From Octopus sinensis (Eukaryota), in assembly GCF_006345805.1 (NCBI RefSeq), contig NW_021824039.1, positions 1 through 20,243 of the forward strand: a stretch of 20,243 nucleotides of DNA, read 5' to 3'. A model generated the notes under the pieces. The model ran no database searches and was not told the DNA's origin. It saw only the letters and a program-made list of their open reading frames with translations. The translations under genes and the position numbers were made by a program. Shown piece after piece: positions 3,976-20,243 of this stretch. Every line of letters starts with the position of its first letter. Position 1 is the first letter of the stretch.

Positions 3976-4397
3976 TAATCTAAGTAATTTATTGACTAAT
4001 TTCACTCACATTATCAAAATTTTGTCTCAGTGCAGTAATATCGTTATAATCCAGCAAATTCGAGTTCACAGTTAATCCATATTTTTCTTCAGTACGATTA
4101 TTGCTTCTGCTTCACCTTCCTACCAACTTTGGTACTTTTACTTCACAACTTCAAAATAACTGTTTAACAGATTTTATTCTAATTTCCCAGCATTTAAGCT
4201 AACGTAAATTTATCTGTTCATGAACTGGATACCGATTAAAAACCTATATAAGCTTTGTAATTTGAACATGTTTGATTATGCCTGTTCCACTCATATTTTT
4301 TCCGCTCATCTATTAATTCATCGTGTTCAATTTTTCATTATTTGGTTAATATTATTGCCATTTTAATCATATCTTCGCAATAGATTCATTTATTCCT

Positions 4398-5480: not shown

Positions 5481-5887
5481 AGCGCAGGAGTGGCTGAGTG
5501 GTAAGTAGCTTACTTACCAACCACATGGTTCCGGGTTCAGTCTCACTGCGTGGCACCTTGGGCAAGTGTCTTCTAATATAGCCTCGGGCCGACCAAAGCC
5601 TTATGAGTGGATTTGGTAGACGGAAACTGAAAGAAGCCCGTCGTATATATGTATGTGTGTGTATATGTTTGTGTGCCTGTGTTGTCCCCTAACATCGCTT
5701 GACAACCGATGCTGGTGTGTTTACGTCCCCGTAACTTAGCGGTTCGGCAAAAGAGAAGACCGATAGAATAAGTACTAGGCTTACAAAGAATAAGTCCTGG
5801 GGTCGATTTGGTCGACTAAAGGCGGTGCTCCAGCATGGCCGTAGTCAAATGACTGAAACAAGTAAAAGAGTAAAAGAGTAAAAGAGA
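5481..5887 (+). mobile_element. Full-length tRNA-derived SINE, family A
   Basis: gcgcaggagTGGCTGAGTGGtaag (A box), GGTTCAGTCTC (B box), central domain, 3' ggcggtgctccagcatggcc and (gtaaaaga)3 tail; matches the reverse complement of 1230-1637. Confidence 0.93.
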
Positions 5888-6022
5888 ATATATATTTCTG
5901 TGTGTGTTAGGGGTTGAGAAACCAAATAAAGGATAGTAAATATCCATATACTGCTGGTATATTGGATAGCTATCATAGGTACACGCCAATACGTACTCTC
6001 TTATAACACACACACCTTCGTG

Positions 6023-6023
<1 letters not shown>

Positions 6024-6059
<36 letters not shown>

Positions 6060-6085
6060 TATATATATTAGATAGATAGATAGAG

Positions 6086-6117
<32 letters not shown>

Positions 6118-6145
6118 GATAGATAGATAGATAGACAGATGATAA

Positions 6146-6218
<73 letters not shown>

Positions 6219-6241
6219 ATAGATAGATAGATAGATAGATA
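6024..6241. repeat. Compound microsatellite (TA)n + (GATA)n
   Basis: Direct reading. Confidence 0.96.
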
Positions 6242-6294
6242 GCTATATGGAAAAAAAGTCAAGATAGGAAATGCTAAAATAATTTTATAAAAAA

Positions 6295-6341
6295 CATTTC
6301 AGTACCAGTTTCAGTCATTGAGACTTTTTCAACTGTAGTAT
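6295..6341 (-). ncRNA. Minimal type-I hammerhead ribozyme with U3-A8 variant core
   Basis: Minus strand: cag UUGAAAA aguc-ucaau-gacu GAAA cug GUA|cug. Stem I cag/cug, stem II 4 bp, stem III A-U and C-G; predicted cleavage between 6303 and 6302. Confidence 0.72.
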
Positions 6342-6466
6342 GGAAAACAATTAAATTTGGAAAAGAATATTTGTATAGTGTCCAAATACAACGGCCCATT
6401 TTCCTAGTTTCTGCCTGTCTCTTCTCTCTTGTTTACTCTTGTGGGTTCGAAGATCGTTGTGTGTAG

Positions 6467-6502
<36 letters not shown>

Positions 6503-6734
6503 ATATATAGATATATATTATATGTGTGTGTGTGTGTTGTGTATGTATGTATGTATGTATGTATGTATGTATGTGTTTGTATTGAGGCACAAATGTTTTA
6601 TTTCTACACTCTCACTTCTGAAAGCGCTGTTGCGTGTTTGGTTTGAGAACGGAACCGGAAGTTTCATATTAAATCCGTTATTTGGTTAATTTCCGATTGG
6701 ATATCGGAAAATTCTTCTAATTCATGACGCTAAC

Positions 6735-6735
<1 letters not shown>

Positions 6736-6783
<48 letters not shown>

Positions 6784-6837
6784 ATAATAATAATAGTAAT
6801 AATAATAATAATAATAATAGTAATAATAATAATAATA
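6736..6837. repeat. Compound trinucleotide microsatellite (GTA)n-(ATA)n
   Basis: Direct reading. Confidence 0.96.
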
Positions 6838-7067
6838 CGAGAAAACCCTAAAACAAAAATACTAAAAAAGAAAGAAAAATCAGACATACAAAGGAAGAAA
6901 ATATTCAGTGCAAGAAACAAAACCAGGTCATATCCTTTTATATATGGATGCACAGAAGCCTCATACATATATTGCGAATATCAAATAAGCTCATACAATG
7001 ACTGCATATGTTATACATACATGGTAACAAACTGATGCCAGCTGATAATACATTTTCTGTCATACGT

Positions 7068-7120
<53 letters not shown>

Positions 7121-7327
7121 TATATATATATATATATAGATAAGAAAGTTTGTTTGGTAAAGCACGTGGGTGAGGAATATATAAGAAAATAGTAAAGTGT
7201 GAAAAAACGACAGAAGGCTTAAATGTTAAAAAAATATATATATTTGTGTCAAAATGTCTGAGAAGAATATTGGAAAAATTTTTTTTCCCTTTCCTTAAAA
7301 TGACATAATTTTAAAAATTGTTTAAAG

Positions 7328-7361
7328 AAATTACCGGTTTCGCGTGTAGCTTTTCAAAGTT
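7328..7361 (-). ncRNA. Minimal type-I hammerhead ribozyme with U3-A8 core and palindromic stem III
   Basis: Minus strand: aacu UUGAAAA gc-uacac-gc GAAA ccg GUA|auuu. ACCGGU palindrome at 7333-7338; stem I has one C.U mismatch. Confidence 0.62.
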
Positions 7362-7467
7362 TTTTGTGACATAGATATATATATATATATATATATATAG
7401 ATATATATATATATATAAAGTATTAAAAGCAATATGTAGGTATATATATGTATATATATATATGGTA

Positions 7468-7500
<33 letters not shown>

Positions 7501-7920
7501 ACACAGAGGCACACATTCATAATGAACGTATCAAAAGCTGCAAAAACAGAGGATAAAGATAGAAAAAGTTGTTGGTTAGAAATACTATGTGCTTGCGTTT
7601 CAATAACCTACACGTGTATGTGTGTGTATTTATGGGTGCATGTACTCATCAATGAGCGTGCACCACACATACACATATGCGTGTGTATATATACGTGTGT
7701 ATGTGCATATATATATATATATATAATATATATATTATATATATATATATACTTATATATATATATATATAATATATATTTGTTTCTTGTGTGCATACTG
7801 CCGTTGTCAATATTGGTCTAATCTTGTTACGGGCGATTTCTCTTCGTGATGGCAGCTAGAAAAACAACCACTTTTAATTATCTTTCAGGTCTCGCATAAA
7901 AATATATATATTTTATATAA

Positions 7921-7921
7921 T

Positions 7922-8009
<88 letters not shown>

Positions 8010-8016
8010 ATATGTA

Positions 8017-8047
<31 letters not shown>

Positions 8048-8176
8048 TGTATGTATGTATGAATGTATGTATAAATATATGTACGTACACATACAAATAT
8101 ATATAAATGTGTGTAGGTATACATATATATACATACATACATACATACATACATACATGCATACATACATACATAC
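7921..8176. repeat. Compound (CA)n/(TA)n/(TATG)n/(CATA)n microsatellite block
   Basis: Direct reading; the TATG and CATA arrays are mutually inverted. Confidence 0.93.
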
Positions 8177-8529
8177 AGACGCTCATATAAACTAGGAAAT
8201 AAATATAGCTTTTATTAACTGCCACCGCATATAAAAGATGTATATAACAATTATACACGAACTAAACACACACAGAATTCCCGTGCACACAAACTTAGAA
8301 TACAGAGTGAAATTCATGCATCCATCTCTCTCCCTCTCTTTCACTCTTTCTCTCTCTATCTATCTTTATATATATATATATATATATATATAACAACTTA
8401 TAAATGAGGGCAAACGAAAAAATTTCTAATGCCAAATATGCCGAAATTAGACACATTGTCCATAACCATATATTTTATCACAATATGCACGCTACTCGAA
8501 AAAGGTCGACAGAAATTTCTAAAAAAATT

Positions 8530-8601
8530 CCGTTATTACCATTACGGACCGATTTCAGGATTAGTTCATAAGAACCCTCTCTTCGTCAGTGATAAATGCG
8601 G
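8530..8601 (-). ncRNA. Type-I hammerhead-like motif with intact core and displaced or decayed stem I
   Basis: Minus strand: uuauca CUGACGA ag-agag-gguuc-uuau-gaacu-aauc-cu GAAA ucg GUC cguaa ugguaa. Core boxes at 8589-8583 and 8556-8553. Confidence 0.5.
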
Positions 8602-8713
8602 CAAAAAATAAATGAAATACTTACTCATATCCTACATTAGATGTAAATTTATATATATATATATACATACATATATATATATAGAATATATATATATATA
8701 TATATATTATATA

Positions 8714-8774
<61 letters not shown>

Positions 8775-8775
<1 letters not shown>

Positions 8776-8879
8776 ACCGACCAGACTATTAAATGTTGTT
8801 ACACATCGCTGGTCACAATGCGTTCGCATTGTTTTAGCCTTCGAATGACGCCACCCCGCTGGCTAAGCTAGCAGGCCAA
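8775..8879 (-). mobile_element. 3' fragment of SINE family C
   Basis: atgttgttacacatcgctggtcacaatgc...ttttagc...gcaggccaa matches 10197-10285. Confidence 0.7.
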
Positions 8880-8898
8880 TATATATATATATATATTA

Positions 8899-9102
8899 TA
8901 TTTCTTTATTGCCCACAAGGGGATAAACATAGAGGGGACAAACAAGGACAGACAAAGGGATTAAGTCGATTACATCGATCCCAGTGCGTAACTGGTACTT
9001 AATTTATCGACCCCGGCGGAATTTGAACTCAGAACGTAGCGGCAGGCGAAATACGGCTAAGCATTTCGCCCGACGTGCTTACGTTTCTGCCAGCTCGCTG
9101 TC

Positions 9103-9103
<1 letters not shown>
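8899..9103 (-). mobile_element. tRNA-derived SINE family B (Deu/Nin-domain type) with 27-bp internal deletion
   Basis: Colinear with 10921-11146 (gagctggcagaa...gagttcaaattcc...ggggtcgataaattaagtaccag) but lacks aaaggatgaaaggcaaagtcgacctcg. Confidence 0.88.
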
Positions 9104-9170
<67 letters not shown>

Positions 9171-9203
9171 ATAAAATTAATAATAATAATAATAATATAA
9201 TAA

Positions 9204-9254
<51 letters not shown>
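9104..9254. repeat. (TAA)n microsatellite
   Basis: Direct reading; interrupted in the middle. Confidence 0.96.
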
Positions 9255-9257
<3 letters not shown>

Positions 9258-9539
9258 AATGATCCCTGGCTTACCATCCCTGCAAGAAGTGCAAAAGATT
9301 GTCTTAACTGGTACATCACACGTATTGAGAAGAGCATTGTCGATGTGAGAAATGTTGCTGCCTCATGTATTTTAATTTAACTTAAAAAAAAAAAAAAAAA
9401 ATGAACGAAACTATGAGTTTGGTTTAATGGCCTACCAATGTATACTATGAGTTTCTTTGCCTAGGAGTCGGGAAGACACTCGGCAAGAAATGGAAGCAAA
9501 TTTGAAAGAAGAAAAAAAAAAGTAATAATAATAATAATA
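9255..9539 (+). mobile_element. 5'-truncated R4/Dong-clade non-LTR retrotransposon (ORF C-terminus, 3'UTR, A/TAA tail)
   Basis: 9256-9348 translates RMIPGLPSLQEVQKIVLTGTSHVLRRALSM*, matching the R4/Dong C-terminal QKxVLxGTxHxxR signature. 3'UTR stem-loop at ~9450-9490. Flanked by (TAA)n on both sides. Confidence 0.8.
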
Positions 9540-9671
9540 GAAATATGAGTTCATCCGATAAAACTCTAGAGCAAAAAAAGAAACAAATATAAACAAAAAC
9601 TAATATTTATAATAATTTCCAAGGAATCAAATTTATTCAAATGAGAAAAATAAAACTAGATAACTTATCAC

Positions 9672-9803
9672 CTTCCCTGATGTTAATGAATGCAATGTCA
9701 TCATAGCGGAAATAATTGATGACAAGATCGAATAACAAGTCAGACACACCAGCAAGCTTTCCATATAATGAATTTAATATTTCTAATTGTCGCCAACGGA
9801 ATT
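9672..9803 (-). CDS. Candidate internal coding exon of an unknown host gene (132 nt, phase 1-1)
   Basis: Pyrimidine-rich acceptor tttcttctcatatttcttggcttcagtttttaAG, open frame FRWRQLEILNSLYGKLAGVSDLLFDLVINYFRYDDIAFINIRE, donor AAG|GTGATA. Non-repetitive sequence; no homolog recognised. Confidence 0.35.
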
Positions 9804-9981
9804 CTTAAAAACTGAAGCCAAGAAATATGAGAAGAAATACAATCATAATTTCACTAACGGGAGTCTCAGTGTGTTAACGCATAAGAATTCTTATCATCGT
9901 ATGCGCATATACGTCGCGGACGCATGTGCATATGTATGGCTACATACATACGTTGTACATCTATCCGTTCATTCATTCATC

Positions 9982-10251
9982 AATGTATCCATCCAGCTGT
10001 ATGCATGTGTGTCTGTGTGTATATGCGTGTACATAGACAGATCTCGTGATCAACCAGGATATCACATGTTGTTATATATCGCTGGTCACAGTGCACTTTG
10101 CATCCTTTTAGCTGTTGAATAATGTATCCATCCAGCTGTATGCATGTGTGTGTGTGTGTGTACATAGACAGATCTCGTGATCAACCAGGATATCACATGT
10201 TGTTATATATCGCTGGTCACAGTGCACTTTGCATCCTTTTAGCTGTTGAAT
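9982..10251. repeat. Recent tandem duplication, units 9982-10120 and 10121-10251
   Basis: The units are identical except in the internal TG run; AATG microhomology at the junctions. Confidence 0.92.
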
Positions 10252-10450
10252 AATGACAGCCCGTTTGTTAGGTAAGCAGGCCAACATCTCCCCACCCCAG
10301 ATCGGAAAGCTAGTTTGTTACAAGGTTACCCATTTACAGCTGAATAAAATTAAGTGTTTTACTCAAGAAAAAAAAAGCAACACGCGGCTCGGTATGGAAA
10401 TCGAACCCACGATCTAAGGATCGTGAGTGCAACACCGTAACCACTATATC
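10170..10450 (-). mobile_element. tRNA-derived SINE family C (older, diverged)
   Basis: Minus strand tagtggttacggtgttgcactcacgatccttagatcgtGGGTTCGATTTCC (tRNA head with B box), central cttgagtaaaacactt...cagctgtaaatgggtaac, and a tail shared with 8775-8879. Confidence 0.75.
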
Positions 10451-10920
10451 ATACTCCTTCGCTACATAGACATATACATACATATAAACATACATCAACT
10501 CGCGACCAAGTAAGACCACTTGTTAAACACATTTCACTCCAAGAAACATCTTAAGTTTAGTTTTCCCTTCACTGATGACGTCTCGTATGTCTCCTAAGGC
10601 GTGCAAAGGGCCTACAAGTCATTCCACAAGACCACAAGTCAACCTACCAGCGACAAACAATCTGGAAGTTGAAGCCTACACAACTGAGTGAATCCACTGG
10701 CCGGCCCATATACTTTATTACACAAGATTCACAGGAGAACATACTGGATATCACATTAATAACACTTGTGGCTGAATAGGCCTTCCTTTGAGAAGAAGAC
10801 ACACGGAAGAGAATGTTTCATGCCTTGCTCAGGAAGAAGATCCATATATTTACTAGCATGTTCCAGTTCAGTGTATGCCACTCTGTTGTTCTCGTCGTAT
10901 TTTTGCATCCAACAGAGACC

Positions 10921-11146
10921 TATTTCTTTACTATCCACAAGGGGCTACACACAGAGGGGACAAACAAGGGCAGACAAACGGATTAAGTCGATTACATCGA
11001 CCCCAGTGCGCAACTGGTACTTAATTTATCGACCCCGAAAGGATGAAAGGCAAAGTCGACCTCGGCGGAATTTGAACTCAGAACGTAACGGCAGACAAAA
11101 ATACGGCTACGCATTTCGCCCGGCGTGCTAACGCTTCTGCCAGCTC
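10921..11146 (-). mobile_element. Full-length SINE family B (Deu/Nin-domain type) with 16-bp TSD
   Basis: GCATCCAACAGAGACC at 10905-10920 and 11147-11162. Contains gcctttcatcctttcggggtcgataaattaagtaccag, resembling the Deu/Nin domain, and B-box-like GAGTTCAAATTCC. Confidence 0.92.
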
Positions 11147-11159
11147 GCATCCAACAGAG

Positions 11160-11255
11160 ACCATAAACCCATGTCTCATCACCACTGATAACGGTCTCCA
11201 TGAAGACCGGGTCGTGGTTTGCACAGTCCAGCATGTTCTGAGCGGTTTCCACGTT
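11160..11255 (-). pseudogene. Mariner (Tc1/mariner) transposase fragment
   Basis: VETAQNMLDCANHDPVFMETVISGDETWVYG matches the mariner DPxFxxxIITGDETWVY motif carrying the first catalytic Asp. Confidence 0.82.
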
Positions 11256-11266
11256 TTAAAACTTAC

Positions 11267-11306
11267 CCTTCCTGTGTTGTCTTTCATTTTGCCTTCATTG
11301 CTTTCA
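11267..11306 (-). CDS. Candidate 40-nt micro-exon (phase 2-0)
   Basis: TAG|t gaa agc aat gaa ggc aaa atg aaa gac aac aca gga agg|GTAAGT. Perfect donor but weak polypyrimidine tract; the only open frame is compatible with the 16286-16329 candidate. Confidence 0.25.
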
Positions 11307-11549
11307 CTACATAGACATATATGTGTGTGTATGTCTGTACAAGTGTGTGCGTGTGTATGTGAGTGTGTGTGTGTATGTGTGTGTGTAGGCTTATATACAT
11401 ATGATTAGACTGTAATTTGAACTGGATCCAGCTTGTTCACTCCACAACATTTAACAATTTAACCATTTTAGTGATTTCGGTTTCAATGAGTTATGGAAAC
11501 CTTCAGGCGTGAGTTTCTGCAAGCGTAGTCGCCGTACACAAGCTCAAAT

Positions 11550-11563
11550 CACACACACACACA

Positions 11564-11602
<39 letters not shown>

Positions 11603-11720
11603 ACACCACACACACACACACATGCACGCACATACACACACATATAAGGACACACGGTTGTACAAACACACATATACACAAGCATACAATTCCACATGCA
11701 GATACACATATACACATGTG
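11550..11720. repeat. (CA)n-rich microsatellite
   Basis: Direct reading. Confidence 0.93.
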
Positions 11721-11821
11721 CACAGATATGTACGCACATATGTCTTCGTACATATAATGAATTATTAGTAACTGTTAGAATGCTAATTAGCTTAAACGCC
11801 TTCATATTCTGCGATACATGA

Positions 11822-12000
11822 TATCTCCAGAGCAGTTAAGTGCGTCATAGAAAGCTTTGTTCACATTGTGAGAAAGACGATGCCAGTTATTGTCTTTGAC
11901 ATTCAGTGTCTCCCTTCACTGTCTTCCTTTTCTCCTGTCCTTGAGAATTTGATGAAGGACTTACTTGAGGGGGTTGGTTGAGAGGATCAGTTGAAAACAG
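11822..12000 (-). mobile_element. Possible decayed RTE-type LINE fragment
   Basis: Minus strand translates ...ETLNVKDNNW... and HNVNKAFYDALN in different frames, resembling the RTE pre-RT linker (RxMKDxWW...KxFYDALK). Confidence 0.35.
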
Positions 12001-12376
12001 ATTAAGCTGCTATGACAATTTTCAAACACCTTCCCACTTGACCAAAGCCAATGGGTTGGGCTTTATGTAATCTTTTAACCCGGTGTAAATAGCAGCCAAA
12101 TACACGCAAAAAAAATTCTATTGTCTTCAGGTTATGCAGGTGCTAAGATACACCACACGTTAAACCAGCCGGATATTTTTTTTTAATTTATGAAATTAAA
12201 TACGGTATATATGTATATATATGTATATATATATATGCGTGTGTGTGTATGTGTGAACACATGCACACATATCCACTAATTCTTAAACACACACATGCAC
12301 GCACACATGCGCGCACACACACGCACGTACACATACACACATCTATCTATCTATTTGTCTGTCTCTCTCTCTCTCC

Positions 12377-12444
<68 letters not shown>

Positions 12445-12638
12445 ATTAATAGTAATAGTATGACAACAAAAGAATGAACGATCGAATCGATCGCAATGAT
12501 ACCTGGTTGATCTTGTCAGTAGTCACTGGTGTACCTTTTGTGATCTAGATATATGTTTTATAATATATTTTATTTTTTCTATATGGTATGGTGTATGTCA
12601 TCATTGTTTGAATTACATAATAGTGGTTTTTCTCTAAC

Positions 12639-12730
<92 letters not shown>

Positions 12731-12969
12731 TGTATGTATGTATGTATACACACAAGAGGTACGCAATGAAACATGTTTCATACCGAGAGCAACCTTTAAA
12801 TTAAAATTTTTATTCCTTAGATATTTACTCGTCAAGTTTTTAATATTCAGTTATTATTTAAATTTATTATTTGTATTTCTATTCATTTGCACATGTTAAG
12901 TAAGATTATATTGAAGATATAGAGTATCATGGAAGTATATAAGAGTTAGGGGTAGTGAAAAATGTTGAG

Positions 12970-13098
12970 GAATCCAGACCTGACGATTGGGAGTATGTCG
13001 ACCCGAGTAAGTATTGAAACTAGATACCTCGTATCTAATCAATACCGACGTACTTTCATGAAACGCGTGTAGTCTTATAAACGGAAAATACAGGATTC
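12970..13098 (+). ncRNA. Type-I hammerhead ribozyme with long extended stem II
   Basis: agac CUGACGA(12980-86) u [ugggaguaugucg/cgacguacuuuca 13 bp; guauuga/ucaauac; uagauac/guaucua] u GAAA(13060-63) cgcgu GUA|gucu. Stem I agac/gucu, extendable by gaaucc/ggauuc; predicted cleavage after 13071. Confidence 0.8.
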
Positions 13099-13317
13099 AG
13101 AATAGATATAGCTAGTTAAGATTTAATTTTTAATATTTTATAGAGTGGTCGGGTATAAAAATCTTAGTGTTGACTGAGTTGAAGGTGGTTCTGTCTCTAA
13201 AATTACTTTTATATATATGAATTAAACATTGAGAGATGTTCATTTTAGGACATCTAATTTGAATGTCTTTCTCCTGTGTACTCGGAACTAATATTACCTA
13301 ATAATTATAATATATAT

Positions 13318-13357
<40 letters not shown>

Positions 13358-13420
13358 ATATGTATATATGTATATGTAAGTATGTATGTGTGTATGCATA
13401 TATATATATATATAATATAT

Positions 13421-14172
13421 ATAGTGTAATAAATAAAATATATGCATATATACAAACATATATGTACGTACCTACATCTACATGTACATATACATGCATA
13501 TATAAATATATATAAACAGTACTTGGAGAAGAAGAAGAACGGAACGAAACGAACGAATCGAATCGAATCGACGCGAGGGCGCTGTCAAACAATAGTGTAA
13601 TAAATAAAATATGTGCATACATACAAACATATATGTACGTACCTACATCTACATGTACATATACATGCATATATAAATATATACGTAAGTACAGGACACC
13701 ACAACTAGACGTAGAACTCAACGAGAAACGAAAACGGAAAAACAAGCATGGAACAAACCATTTTTTTACAACAGAAAAACAGAGTACAAGACAAACACGA
13801 GGAAAAATCCTTCATCAGCTGTCCCTAGTTCGACTCTAGCGTGTCGACGAAACACGCTAGAGTCGAACTAGGGACCGCTGATGAAGGATTTTTCCTCGTG
13901 TTGTCTTGTACTCTGTTTTTCTGTTGTAAAAAATGGTTTGTTCCATGCTTGTTTTTCCGTTTTCGTTCTCGTTGAGTTCTACGTCTAGTGTGGTGTCCTG
14001 TACTTACGTATATATTATATATGCATGTATATATACATGTAGATGTAGGTACGTACATATATGTTTGTATGTATGCACATATTTTATTTATTACACTATT
14101 GTTTGACAGCGCCCTCGCGTCGATTCGATTCGATTCGTTCGTTTCGTTCCGTTCTTCTTCTTCTCCAAGTAC

Positions 14173-14177
<5 letters not shown>
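13421..14177. mobile_element. Partial-tandem plus inverted repeat element (Penelope-like pLTR architecture); arms 13514-13844 / 13852-14177, direct copy 13421-13512 of 13592-13683
   Basis: Arms match apart from about 5 single-base indels and 2 substitutions, with a 7-nt loop cgacgaa. Contains GAAAC and CTGATGA boxes near the apex. Flanked by (TA)n. Confidence 0.8.
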
Positions 14178-14216
<39 letters not shown>

Positions 14217-14376
14217 TTTTAATTCTAAATTTCTCAGAGAGAGACATTCAGTAACACTTCTTGAAAGTAAAAGCTAATTGCCAACAAAATATGGCTGTCC
14301 TGGAAGTGAGGTTGTTACTATTTATTAGCTCCAAGAAACATCGTTTATAGCTGGCTATACGACTCACTATCTTTGG

Positions 14377-14422
<46 letters not shown>

Positions 14423-14479
14423 TCGCGTTTATGCATATGTATATAAATATACTTGTGTGTCTATGTGTATATAAATAGC

Positions 14480-15260
14480 ATGACAGCGCATCCCTGTTTC
14501 GATGTTAAAGTATGAAAAGAGTGTCATTCACAAATGTCGCAGCTCTTTAGCGATTCCATTGTATACTTGTAGTATCATGCTAGTTAAAGGTAAATTAATT
14601 TGCTAAACAAATGTGCTATCAATATCTTCATACGTATAAACTTTGACGTTCTTGTTACTTCATCCCAAAAGATGAAACCGTTATCTCGAATTTGTCTTGC
14701 CATTTTGCTGTCGATATCAATGCCGGAAACGACGATCATGTCAGTGGAAATTACAATATGGAAAGTTGAATAACCTGAAGAATCGCTTTTGTAGAATAAT
14801 ACTAGAGATGCAACAGCAAGATATAGTTGATTCCATGTTCTCGATAAATGCTTGAATAAAAAACGTTTTTACAGATCTATCAATAGAGAAAGGATTTGTA
14901 TTTAAATTGTTTTTTTCTTTATGGCAGCAGTTAAAGCGTCAACGACATGTCATTATTGATTTGAGTTCTACGTCCTTCGATTGCTTCCTTCAATTTTCTA
15001 TATATTGTCTACAATGGGTTAAAATATATTCTAACTCTTGAACGATGGATATCATCAAATGATGTTTCATTAGCGAACAGCTGGCATCATGAGTTGATGC
15101 TTCAAACATTTTACACGGGTACGGTCATTGTCAGTTGATGACCAAACTACTACTTCGTCAAATACGCTTAGACGCAAGCGGCTCTTATCGATGGGAGAAA
15201 CCAAGTCACAAATAGGTTTATATGACGATGAAGAAGCTATTTTTCTGGCATAACTTCGTT
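14480..15260 (-). pseudogene. Decayed Helitron RepHel segment (PIF1-family helicase region)
   Basis: Minus-strand motifs in the expected order: IRAACV/VFDEVVVW, QELEYIL, IDRSVKTF (14884-14861; deleted Walker A), LAVAS (14820-14806), GYSTF, SKMARQIRDNGFIFWDE (WDE 14667-14659; Walker B), YEDIDST, ETGMR (to 14486). Confidence 0.78.
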
Positions 15261-15336
15261 ATTAGATAAAATAGATGATGATTATGGTGGTGTAAAAATA
15301 GTAGTGGGACTAAAACTTCTTCAAAGCGGTGCCTGG

Positions 15337-15381
15337 GTGGAACTTTGGGCAACTGTCTTCTACTGTAGCCTCGGCCCGACC
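15337..15381 (+). mobile_element. Central fragment of SINE family A
   Basis: gtggaactttgggcaactgtcttctactgtagcctcggcccgacc matches 5550-5594. Confidence 0.75.
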
Positions 15382-15403
15382 CCTCTTTAGATAAGATTAA
15401 TAC

Positions 15404-15693
15404 AAGAATAATATAAGACGTCTCTATGCTTGCGTCCCCCGGAACCTAATGACTTGATTGGTTGCAAGAAATGCACTTCATTTTTACCCGGGGTACCCAG
15501 GAAAATCCGACAGGAATTAATCGTATTCCGCCCTGATGAAGAGCCCACAGGCAGCCGTTGCTGAGCATTATTATAAAGAGTGTTCTTCTATAGTGATCTT
15601 AAGATATAAACTCAGTAACTTAAAGATGGTTTGCAGCGCAGAAACAAATGTGATCTATTGATGAAACTTATCTTATCCTCGTGTTATATTATT

Positions 15694-15696
<3 letters not shown>
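15404..15696 (+). mobile_element. Structured repeat island with 17-bp terminal inverted repeat and degenerate long-stem-II hammerhead
   Basis: aagaataatataagacg (15404-20) / cgtgttatattattctt (15680-96); CTGATGA at 15533-39 and GAAAC at 15641-45 bracket nested stems. Confidence 0.45.
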
Positions 15697-15740
<44 letters not shown>

Positions 15741-15776
15741 TGTATTTATATCTGTGTGTATATATATGTGTATGTA

Positions 15777-15820
<44 letters not shown>

Positions 15821-15881
15821 TATATATATATATATATATATAACATATATATATATATATATAATATTTATATAACATATA

Positions 15882-15914
<33 letters not shown>

Positions 15915-16108
15915 AGTATTATATACATATATGTATGTATATATGTGTGTGTCTGTGTGGTATAGTGTGTGGGTGTGTATATATATATGTGTGTTGTGTG
16001 TTGTGTATATATATATATATATATGTATATGTATTTATGTATGTATGTTAATATATATATATTATATTAATATATATATATATATATTATATTATATATA
16101 TATATATA
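15697..16108. repeat. Long degenerate (TA)n/(TG)n block
   Basis: Direct reading. Confidence 0.93.
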
Positions 16109-16285
16109 CATTCACATTACTATTTCTTGTGTAATCAATAGGTACCTAAGCGTTACAAAATATTCAAATTCAATTAGACTTGTCTCCAAGCTGTATCGGG
16201 AACATACAGTACGATACTATCTTTATGCTTTTTATATCATCTTCCCATCATATAATCTAATGGTGTCACCGCATAACTAAATTAC

Positions 16286-18107: not shown

Positions 18108-18824
18108 AAGATTATAAATCTGGAAAATTATAGAACAAGTTATTACACTTGGAAAAGTTCAGGACAACTTATTACATCTGGTAAAGTACAGAACAATAAC
18201 ATTTTTACTTAAAATATTGCAGCTAAGGATAAAATTTGAATATTAAAAAATATTTTATTTTAATTTACGAAGTAACATTATAATTTTAAAATGTACCATC
18301 CTTTTTATTAAAATATTGACACACCAGAATACTTAAAAACTGAGAAAGTTTTATGCAAAGTAAAATAGTATATATGGTATACAAATTCATTATGTAAAAA
18401 ATAGGCATTGGGTCAAGACTAAAAATGTGAAGACTTGGCAATAACTCAAGCAAATTTTACTGTGAACTTGTTGTTATAGGTAAATTTAACAGTAATACAT
18501 AACTAATTTTTGTATTATTCTATTGATTGTACTAATTATGAACTAGTACTATTTTTTATAACCTATTTTCAAATTTCTGGTTATTAATTAATAATTAAAA
18601 AAAGGAAGTTTTTAAAGTGCAAAAATATTTTGAGTTATTTTTAATTTTTGATAGAAGTAACAAGTAATAAGAATAAAAGTAATAACTTGTAATAATTTTT
18701 TTAGTTTTTATAAACGCTAATATTTTCTAAATCTAAATATTTTATTTGAAACTTTATCCTTACCTGCAATATTTTAAGTAAAAAATTTCTTGTTCTCTAC
18801 TTTATCAGATGTAATAACTTGTTC
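18108..18824. mobile_element. MITE/foldback-like DNA element with ~72-bp imperfect inverted repeats (18162-18233 / 18753-18824) and 29-bp tandem subrepeats
   Basis: ttattacatctggtaaagtacagaacaa...tttttacttaaaatattgcagctaaggataaa is reverse-complemented on the right. Three 29-bp units at 18108-36, 18137-65 and 18166-94. Confidence 0.7.
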
Positions 18825-19208
18825 AGAAAATGTGTCAAAGGCTCAGAAACATGTCTCTGGGTGCAGGCTTAGCTGTTGGGGGTGCTTGTCTCCCCTTTGT
18901 AAACATAAAGGCATAGGAAATGTGTCAAGGCCGACAGGAAGCGTTGATGCTTCCTAGGGCTAAATAGCGGTGGTGTGATTCCCTTTATGGGACTGTCACG
19001 TTAAGTTGACAGTATACAACTGCTCTATCGTTACACCACTGCTTATATCTCTCTGAGATATTTAGAAATTTAATATTTATATATATATATGTGTGTGTGT
19101 GTGGTGTGTGTGTGTATGTATGTAGGTATACTTATATATCTTTAAATATACATATAAATATATACAGACAGCATCTATTACACCACACACACCCAACATC
19201 TATATATT

Positions 19209-19283
<75 letters not shown>

Positions 19284-19799
19284 TTACTTGTATGTGTGTA
19301 TATACACACAAGTGTATACGTATGTATATATGCATACACGCTCGGACACCATACTCGCAAATATATATAACGCTATAACTTTTGCAAAGACTACTGAGAT
19401 TAATAAACTTAATTCTCTTAACAAACGAACAAAATACTACACAATTAAAAACATATATTATATTTAAACAATTTATGAATTCGTTTTTGATCCGAAAATT
19501 TTGAGGTTAAGCGTAAATTAAATTGAAAATATTTTATTAAATATTATTGATTCCATAATGATATAAAGTACTTTATTTATACATTAATTCATTGAAATTA
19601 TTATTTTCAATTTAATTTGTTTACCTTTCAATTCATCAAAGCATAGTGAAATGATCGATGCTTGTAAAACAAATACTTACCAATATCAAATCTCGGTTTA
19701 TTTCGTAGCTTATTTAATGACATTTAACGATGACTTTTATCTTCCGTTCTGTGTGCTATAATATATCATCTGATTTTTTTCTCACTTCAATTCGTATAT

Positions 19800-19976
19800 A
19801 TTCTTTTATTCTTTTACTTGTTTCAGTCATGTGACAACAGCCATATTGGAACACCGCCTTAAAATTGTCTTTTAGTCGAAGAAATCGAACCCAGTACTTA
19901 TTTTTTGTAAGCCTAGTACTTATTCTATCGGTCCCTTTCGCCAAACCGCTAAGTTACAGGGACACAAACACATCAA
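19800..19976 (-). mobile_element. 3' half of SINE family A (5'-truncated)
   Basis: Aligns to 1230-1397 (ttcttttattcttttac...gtaagcctagtacttattctatcggtc...gccaaaccgctaagttac). Confidence 0.88.
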
Positions 19977-20046
19977 GATATATATATTTCGTTTTGGGTT
20001 TGCTTTGCAAGATTCTTTATGTGAGTTCGTGTGTTGAAGCATATTC

Positions 20047-20197
20047 TGTTGTGTCTGGGGAGAGTCATTCTCTTTTGGTGCCTTATAATTTAACACACTC
20101 ACCGGTAAAAAAAAAGAAGTGGTAATTTGGTAATTTTACCGGTGAGTGTGCTAAATTATAAGGCACCAGAAGAGAATGGCTCTCCCCCGACACAACA
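20047..20197. repeat. Fold-back element with 64-bp arms, 20047-20110 / 20134-20197
   Basis: 4 mismatches; both arms carry ACCGGT next to the 23-bp spacer; followed by (TA)n. Confidence 0.92.

Positions 20198-20243
<46 letters not shown>

Follow-up and report, generated by a model that had tools for sequence, protein, structure and literature searches.

The six short islands interspersed with TA-type microsatellites in a stretch of the Octopus sinensis genome (contig NW_021824039.1, positions 1 to 20,243; these 20,243 nucleotides are referred to below as the window) are probably independent, 5'-truncated tail ends of several families of Penelope-like elements (PLEs). Each would have entered a TA-type microsatellite through target-primed reverse transcription, and four of them carry a hammerhead motif. 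The GIY-YIG endonuclease/reverse transcriptase (RT) of a full element located elsewhere would nick the microsatellite, and reverse transcription would start in the 3' region of the RNA and stop early. One of the islands, a palindrome, would consist of a 3' fragment plus an inverted copy of the sort frequent in PLE insertions, and the variety of the motifs (a minimal U3-A8 type, a Hydra-like type whose stem II is long, and a Naiad-like type with reversed boxes) would reflect different PLE lineages rather than one new system.

The islands occur where a preliminary description of this stretch had placed them and are, as it had claimed, mutually unrelated: no match between islands was obtained with blastn beyond some TA-rich bits. 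Their names, limits, and main features are as follows:

6243..6466, minus strand: island A, likely a PLE 3' fragment
6335-6300, minus strand: hammerhead of island A, minimal type I, with a U3-A8 core and a GUA site after 6303
7143..7370, minus strand: island B, whose U3-A8 motif is minimal (box 1 at 7357, GAAA at 7341, GUA site after 7332)
8393..8649, minus strand: island C, whose type I motif is degenerate (box 1 at 8589, GAAA at 8556, GUC site after 8547)
12749..13312: island D as a whole
12749..12799, no strand assigned: 5' part of D as drawn in the preliminary description, outside the coverage of the family contigs
12800..13218, plus strand: body of D, the 3' end of a multi-copy family, with a first terminus at 13218, behind which other copies continue into (TA)n
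12976..13075, plus strand: hammerhead of D, type I, with a 4-bp stem I, a 73-nt stem II, and a GUA site after 13071
13219..13312, plus strand: optional 3' extension of D, giving a second terminus; likely a PLE 'tail'
13421..13512, minus strand: extra copy (92 nt) of the piece 13592-13683 from inside an arm of the palindrome
13514..14177: palindrome, with arms at 13514-13844 and 13852-14177, both outer ends lying on (TA)n
13845..13884, plus strand: reversed-order boxes, GAAA at 13849 and CUGAUGA at 13878, with a mirror box at 13818 on the minus strand
15385..15696, plus strand: island E, with boxes at 15533 and 15641 flanking a hairpin

TA-type repeats are present on the 3' side (motif strand) of all six islands, A adjoining (TATC)n. 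The 5' flank is a piece of a short interspersed nuclear element (SINE) in the case of E and (TATG)n in that of D; the previously stated adjacency to TA microsatellites is real at the 3' ends. PLEs are described as abundant in Octopus vulgaris (PMC13282606), and the Octopus families of the Hydra and Naiad types as preferring (TA)n, which is the target of Hydra-1_Obim (Craig et al., 2021, PMC8557442). As the preliminary description had stated, there is no RT gene nearby: 15 open reading frames (ORFs) and 42 stop-read-through frames over seven stretches gave no relevant Pfam match to an RT or GIY-YIG domain, and this lack is to be expected in tail fragments.

Island D and its copies

The earlier proposal that Penelope-like fragments occupy the microsatellites is supported directly in the case of D, and by anatomy in those of A, B, C, and the palindrome. 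Assembled contigs from four of the 24 listed runs were placed on D at 80% likeness; three of these runs (X1, X6, and X8) bear three organism labels, and the fourth (X14) is an RNA run by guess only. The contigs placed numbered 537 in X1, 352 in X6, 271 in X8, and 8 in X14, which establishes that D is multi-copy, and the copies are mostly 90–99% alike. The summed depth, which is not equivalent to the copy number, amounts to thousands in X1, as compared with 36–65 for single listed contigs. It is near 0 at 12755-12794 and then increases, being highest at 13175-13214. The idea that D starts with the C-terminus of a GIY-YIG domain was rejected because the family contigs do not cover 12755-12794. 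This uncovered 5' part contains a 16-nt perfect palindrome (12766-12781) resembling the GAAA/stem III part of the D motif.

At the other end, loose contig ends behind 13218 consist of TA repeats in X1 (9), X6 (9), and X8 (4 and 2), and the X14 contigs end at 13218 too; many other contigs extend past this position to about 13312, giving two 3' termini. Opposite-strand joints were observed in 4 contigs. In X6, 4 contigs run on upstream of 12805 over a median length of 160 nt, and the copy of D present in the window is therefore truncated. Inverted 5'-truncated copies and tails are hallmarks of PLEs (PMC8557442), and the concept of the PLE 'tail' has been presented in the literature (PMC11167929, PMC8557442). 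The anatomy of D, with its 5' truncation, inverted copies, and optional tail, is that of a PLE 3' end. No protein is available for D, which was therefore not assigned to a clade.

The motif of D consists of a 4-bp stem I, CUGACGA, U, the 73-nt stem II, U, GAAA, a short stem III, and GUA, in that order. Stem II is composed of 13+7+7 pairs with a U.U at its base; it is more stable than shuffled sequences (z -3.81, 1 of 200 shuffles), and in a 319-nt context 12 of 13 base pairs have a pairing probability of 0.93–0.96. The giant stem II described previously is a feature of D and not of E. Nearly all the other copies of D carry A at 12984 (a free N7) and A at 13065, the latter making stem III a perfect palindrome and presumably removing a competing pairing present in the copy in the window. 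Among the variants (40 of the 94 variant rows), the changes in stem II are of the CpG type or located in the internal loop, and no compensatory pair occurs among them. One contig of the putative RNA run X14 crosses position 13071 uncut; its strand is not known.

These features recall the Hydra-clade cores (File S2, PMC8557442), which have a U after box 1, a U before GAAA, and a palindromic stem III of 3–4 bp and lie approximately 100–250 nt from the 3' end. D shares with the Hydra-clade PLEs, such as Hydra-1_Obim, the U residues flanking stem II, the palindromic stem III, the location of the motif near the 3' end, and the (TA)n target, but its sequence is different, so that it does not belong to the Hydra-1_Obim family, and no ORF was seen in it. 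Its stem II (73 nt) is also much longer than those of the Hydra entries in File S2 (roughly 11–25 nt), the longest in that table being about 50 nt (PLE-X1_sMoe), and the hammerheads said to have a 'long helix II' (PMC13725137) have 6 pairs, which is far shorter than stem II of D. A scan of metagenome contigs with the D core pattern yielded two matches, both of them chance 20-mers in GC-rich, bacterial-looking DNA. D indicates that a stem II as long as 73 nt can be preserved in a PLE hammerhead over many copies, which goes beyond what is in print.

Some of the islands, and D above all, might instead be non-autonomous hammerhead-bearing elements (solo retrozyme monomers or SINE-like parasites of PLEs) having no ORF of their own and moved in trans by PLE proteins, which seems rather improbable. 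Animal non-LTR retrozymes resemble the islands in being non-coding and PLE-derived and in carrying a type I hammerhead, and solo monomers, which are pLTR-derived, are common among them (10.64898/2026.07.22.740005); the absence of any visible ORF, the drop in the depth of D at about 12800-12850, and the 8 contigs in X14 would also fit this explanation. However, animal retrozymes consist of tandem units with one hammerhead each (10.64898/2026.07.22.740005; PMC7229834), whereas no tandem hammerhead units were found in the window and no head-to-tail unit joint among the joints listed for D; the radiation of retrozyme-like elements previously suggested is not supported on this account. D loses its 5' sequence gradually, without any fixed 5' end, four X6 contigs extend upstream, and the cores are minimal or Hydra-like, unlike the canonical type reported in retrozymes (PMC7229834).

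Hammerhead motifs in the other islands

The preliminary description had attributed hammerhead core boxes to every island. Type I boxes (CUGANGA or U3-A8, then GAAA and a UH site) occur in the correct order in A, B, C, and D, which hold real hammerhead motifs; the boxes of E have no hammerhead fold, and those of the palindrome are in the reverse order. All three stems are retained in A and D only. The motif of A has a 3-bp stem I, a 4-bp stem II, and a near-palindromic stem III, that of B has a palindromic stem III, a 2-bp stem II, and a weak stem I with one mismatch, and in C, stem I is off register by 5 nt. A palindromic stem III is common to A, B, and C, and these motifs are of the minimal kind described by Cervera and De la Pena (2014, PMC4209133), who reported the U3-A8 core as well as solo minimal hammerheads, numbering thousands, that originate from truncated PLEs. 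The islands have in common with the latter the type I topology, the short palindromic stem III, the U3-A8 core (A and B), and the mostly solo occurrence, but G10.1-C11.1 and the bulged base are missing from A, and the stems II of the minimal motifs in the window have 2–4 bp versus 7–8 bp.

The frequency of the boxes was compared with that in shuffled sequences over the 31 non-repeat segments of the window (16,119 bases). CTGANGA is enriched (12 vs. 4.9 expected; 2 of 300 shuffles), as is GAAAC (49 vs. 34.8 expected; 3 of 300 shuffles). A strict type I descriptor is passed by A alone (1 vs. 0.01 expected; 5 of 500 shuffles reach 1), and a relaxed one, which tolerates one mismatch at the stem II base, is passed by D as well (2 vs. 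0.028; none of 500 shuffles reaches 2). A minimal type I descriptor, in which stem I is not required and stem III has to be palindromic, was composed after the motifs were known and is hence biased; it picks out five loci (A, B, C, D, and 4017 on the minus strand), as compared with a shuffle mean of 0.018 and no more than one in any of 500 shuffles. The motif density is above background for CTGANGA, GAAAC, and the descriptors, but not for TTGANAA. The fifth locus (3990-4025, minus strand) is a weak minimal type I motif with a U3-A8 core, a GUC site, box 1 at 4017, and a very weak stem II, and may be due to chance.

The motifs outside D might all be chance look-alikes in AT-rich intron DNA located between microsatellites, which is very unlikely. 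B, C, and E do not fold stably, TTGANAA is not enriched, the minimal descriptor is post hoc and also picks 4017, and a choice was made among 31 non-repeat segments; five motifs were nevertheless observed where no shuffle gave more than one, A passes the strict descriptor, and stem III is palindromic in A, B, and C, as is typical of PLE motifs. In the case of E, chance is the likely explanation. Attempts to fold E as a type I hammerhead with a giant stem II or as a type II, type III, or permuted hammerhead were all rejected, no such fold being obtained. Its boxes may be due to chance or heavy decay, and E is possibly a decayed PLE end.

Several points weigh against the PLE-tail origin proposed here. 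The PLE parentage is likely on anatomical grounds only, no RT or endonuclease being linked to any island, and the multi-copy evidence is confined to D. E does not fit; its boxes give no hammerhead fold, as residue H17 would be G and there is no stem I. None of the six short island motifs was found in the published Naiad, Chlamys, and Hydra consensus files (PMC8557442). In the region 6001-16200, 38% of the sequence is no farther than 100 nt from a (TA)6+ tract, so that adjacency alone is a weak argument and partly expected by chance. TTGANAA is at background (23 vs. 22.9 expected), and the folds of B (z 0.40), C (z -0.08), and E (z -0.33) are no more stable than those of shuffled sequences. In D itself, stems I and III have a pairing probability near zero in the 319-nt context, and the 3' extension measures 94 nt, as compared with the tail of 30–40 nt in print. 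No hammerhead, twister, or HDV match was obtained with Rfam when A, C, D, and E were searched singly, or for B and the palindrome among the best 150 of the 194 rows of a whole-window scan.

The whole pattern is of a published kind (PMC4209133, PMC8557442) and not a new system; it amounts to the usual remains of retroelements in a genome rich in microsatellites. The solo, decayed copies present in the islands are probably inert; single minimal hammerheads did not cleave in vitro as monomers (PMC4209133).

Surroundings of the islands

The DNA of the window is AT-rich and of animal type; 122 tandem-repeat rows and 56 (TA)6+ tracts were counted in it. Two dispersed SINE-like families, 80–90% alike inside the window, occur at 1232-1634, 5489-5877, 1709-1850, 15333-15381, and 19797-19975, and at 8899-9098 and 10921-11148, respectively; we take these repeats to be similar to cephalopod/octopus SINEs. 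The broken coding-like remnants at 14430-15290 (minus strand), 11185-11260 (minus strand), and 11840-12060 are presumably reminiscent of a Helitron helicase, a mariner transposase, and a LINE endonuclease; no Pfam match was obtained for any of these three remnants. A 131-bp tandem repeat (9982-10255; two copies, 94% alike) contains no hammerhead motif. Further near-perfect hairpins or terminal inverted repeats, resembling fold-back elements or miniature inverted-repeat transposable elements (MITEs), are located at 20045-20200, 2781-2879, 2233-2490, and 18158-18255 with 18735-18828; some of them lie between TA tracts, and none has ordered hammerhead boxes.

A putative host gene, read by eye, also overlaps the region:

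6664..12544, minus strand: end of the putative host gene, with exons 12544-12503, 7855-7799, 7056-7021, and 6729-6664 (stop), in phase 0 and bounded by AG/GT

A further AG/GT-bounded exon-like segment in phase 2/2 is present at 16190-16146 (minus strand), which would need another exon before 12544-12503. B and C are in sense orientation and intronic in the putative exon chain, and A is in sense orientation just 3' of the putative stop. The previous suggestion that three sense intronic motifs might cut the pre-mRNA is therefore reduced to two, in which stem I is damaged. The orientation of these three motifs would suit the view that they were retained in order to cut the host pre-mRNA, but stems I of A, B, and C are not cross-compatible in sequence and would form no dimer (the A-B and B-C heterodimers were rejected, the stems I being mismatched), and monomeric minimal motifs did not cleave (PMC4209133). 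In addition, a PLE hammerhead has been found to require the protein of the element and to give no RNA ends at its site (PMC11167929), the copy of D in the window has private changes in the core region, and the gene itself is putative. Cutting of the host pre-mRNA by the islands is unlikely, and retention of the motifs for this purpose extremely so.

The palindrome and the ends of Naiad elements

The two arms of the palindrome are identical at 324 of the 326 aligned bases, with 6 gap positions, and a 7-nt loop separates them. Reading outward, GAAA occurs 24 nt ahead of CUGAUGA; a post hoc count gives this reversed order once in the window, versus 0.02 expected (2 of 100 shuffles). The palindrome is likely to be a PLE 3' fragment joined to its own inverted 5'-truncated copy, and the reversed boxes are a candidate 3' half of a permuted hammerhead: the G block does precede the C block, and it is only this 3' half of the putative ribozyme that survives, the inverted copy standing in place of the 5' half. 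The palindrome passes the descriptor in none of the six block orders. Type II and type III hammerheads were rejected here, the stems being unpaired. The palindrome may alternatively be a Tc1/mariner MITE, but its ends differ by one base and its arms are separated by the 7-nt loop with no internal part. Scans with the palindrome pattern gave no match in viral and prokaryote genome contigs, and protein searches with its spurious frames gave none, apart from one chance match to a sheep repeat translation.

Naiads are stated to lack canonical hammerheads, and some of their ends have been called 'HHR_half_core' (Craig et al., 2021, PMC8557442). In the supplement to that paper, the ends of Naiad_Obim and Naiad_Ovul show GAAA ahead of CUGAUGA with a 22-nt spacing. 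Sixty of the 81 'cgaaac' places in this supplement were viewed, 36 being in the Naiad file (File S5) and 17 of these in non-coding ends, and the folds were judged by eye, not computed. Fourteen of the 17 ends fold as non-circularly permuted hammerheads: six of them, from nematodes, are of type CSG, with stems of 4–11 pairs plus a linking helix; one, entered in the spider part of File S5, is of type SGC with a U3-A8 core; and seven show an S-G-C form in which the 5' strand of stem II lies upstream of the S block, leaving the chain open between A9 and G10.1. The open form has 6 pairs in stem II, 4–9 in stem III, 2–6 in stem I, and 5–16 in the linking helix. Its hosts are a ctenophore, corals, a box jelly, and Octopus, amounting to about four independent lineages, several of the entries being near-identical. 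Stems I and III of the open form are visible in Naiad_Esco. The other three of the 17 ends fit partly or not at all.

The Naiad ends resemble the arm of the palindrome in having GAAA 20–24 nt before CUGAUGA, a T-rich tail, a (TA)n end, and an inverted copy, but no sequence match was found between them, the 5' half is missing in the palindrome, and about 290 nt follow the box in the arm, as compared with about 75 nt in Naiad_Obim. They share with the SGC and CSG permuted hammerheads (PMC10085705) the G block placed before the C block and the helix linking stems I and II, although the latter RNAs come from metatranscriptomes and the Naiad ends from animal genomes. Block C was assumed to be uninterruptible, and permuted RNAs, with one exception, were found outside the genomes of known organisms (Eckert et al., 2023, PMC10085705). 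No paper linking Naiads to permuted hammerheads was found in a literature search, most subscription journals being outside its coverage.

It is conceivable, with somewhat less than an even chance, that the palindrome represents the tail of a Naiad-like retroelement and that the ribozyme of this element is a non-circularly permuted hammerhead in which the CUGAUGA block is split from stem II, the chain being open between A9 and G10.1. If so, Naiads would carry the CSG, SGC, and split forms across ctenophores, cnidarians, nematodes, spiders, and cephalopods, and scrambled hammerheads would occur in animal genomes, beyond the few metatranscriptome contigs, with a topology that was assumed not to occur. 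D would further contribute a type I hammerhead whose stem II measures 73 nt and which is present in hundreds of copies. The Naiad ends supply short RNAs that are directly testable for cleavage, and reading them in this way would explain why Naiads seemed to be without the ribozyme kept by other PLEs.

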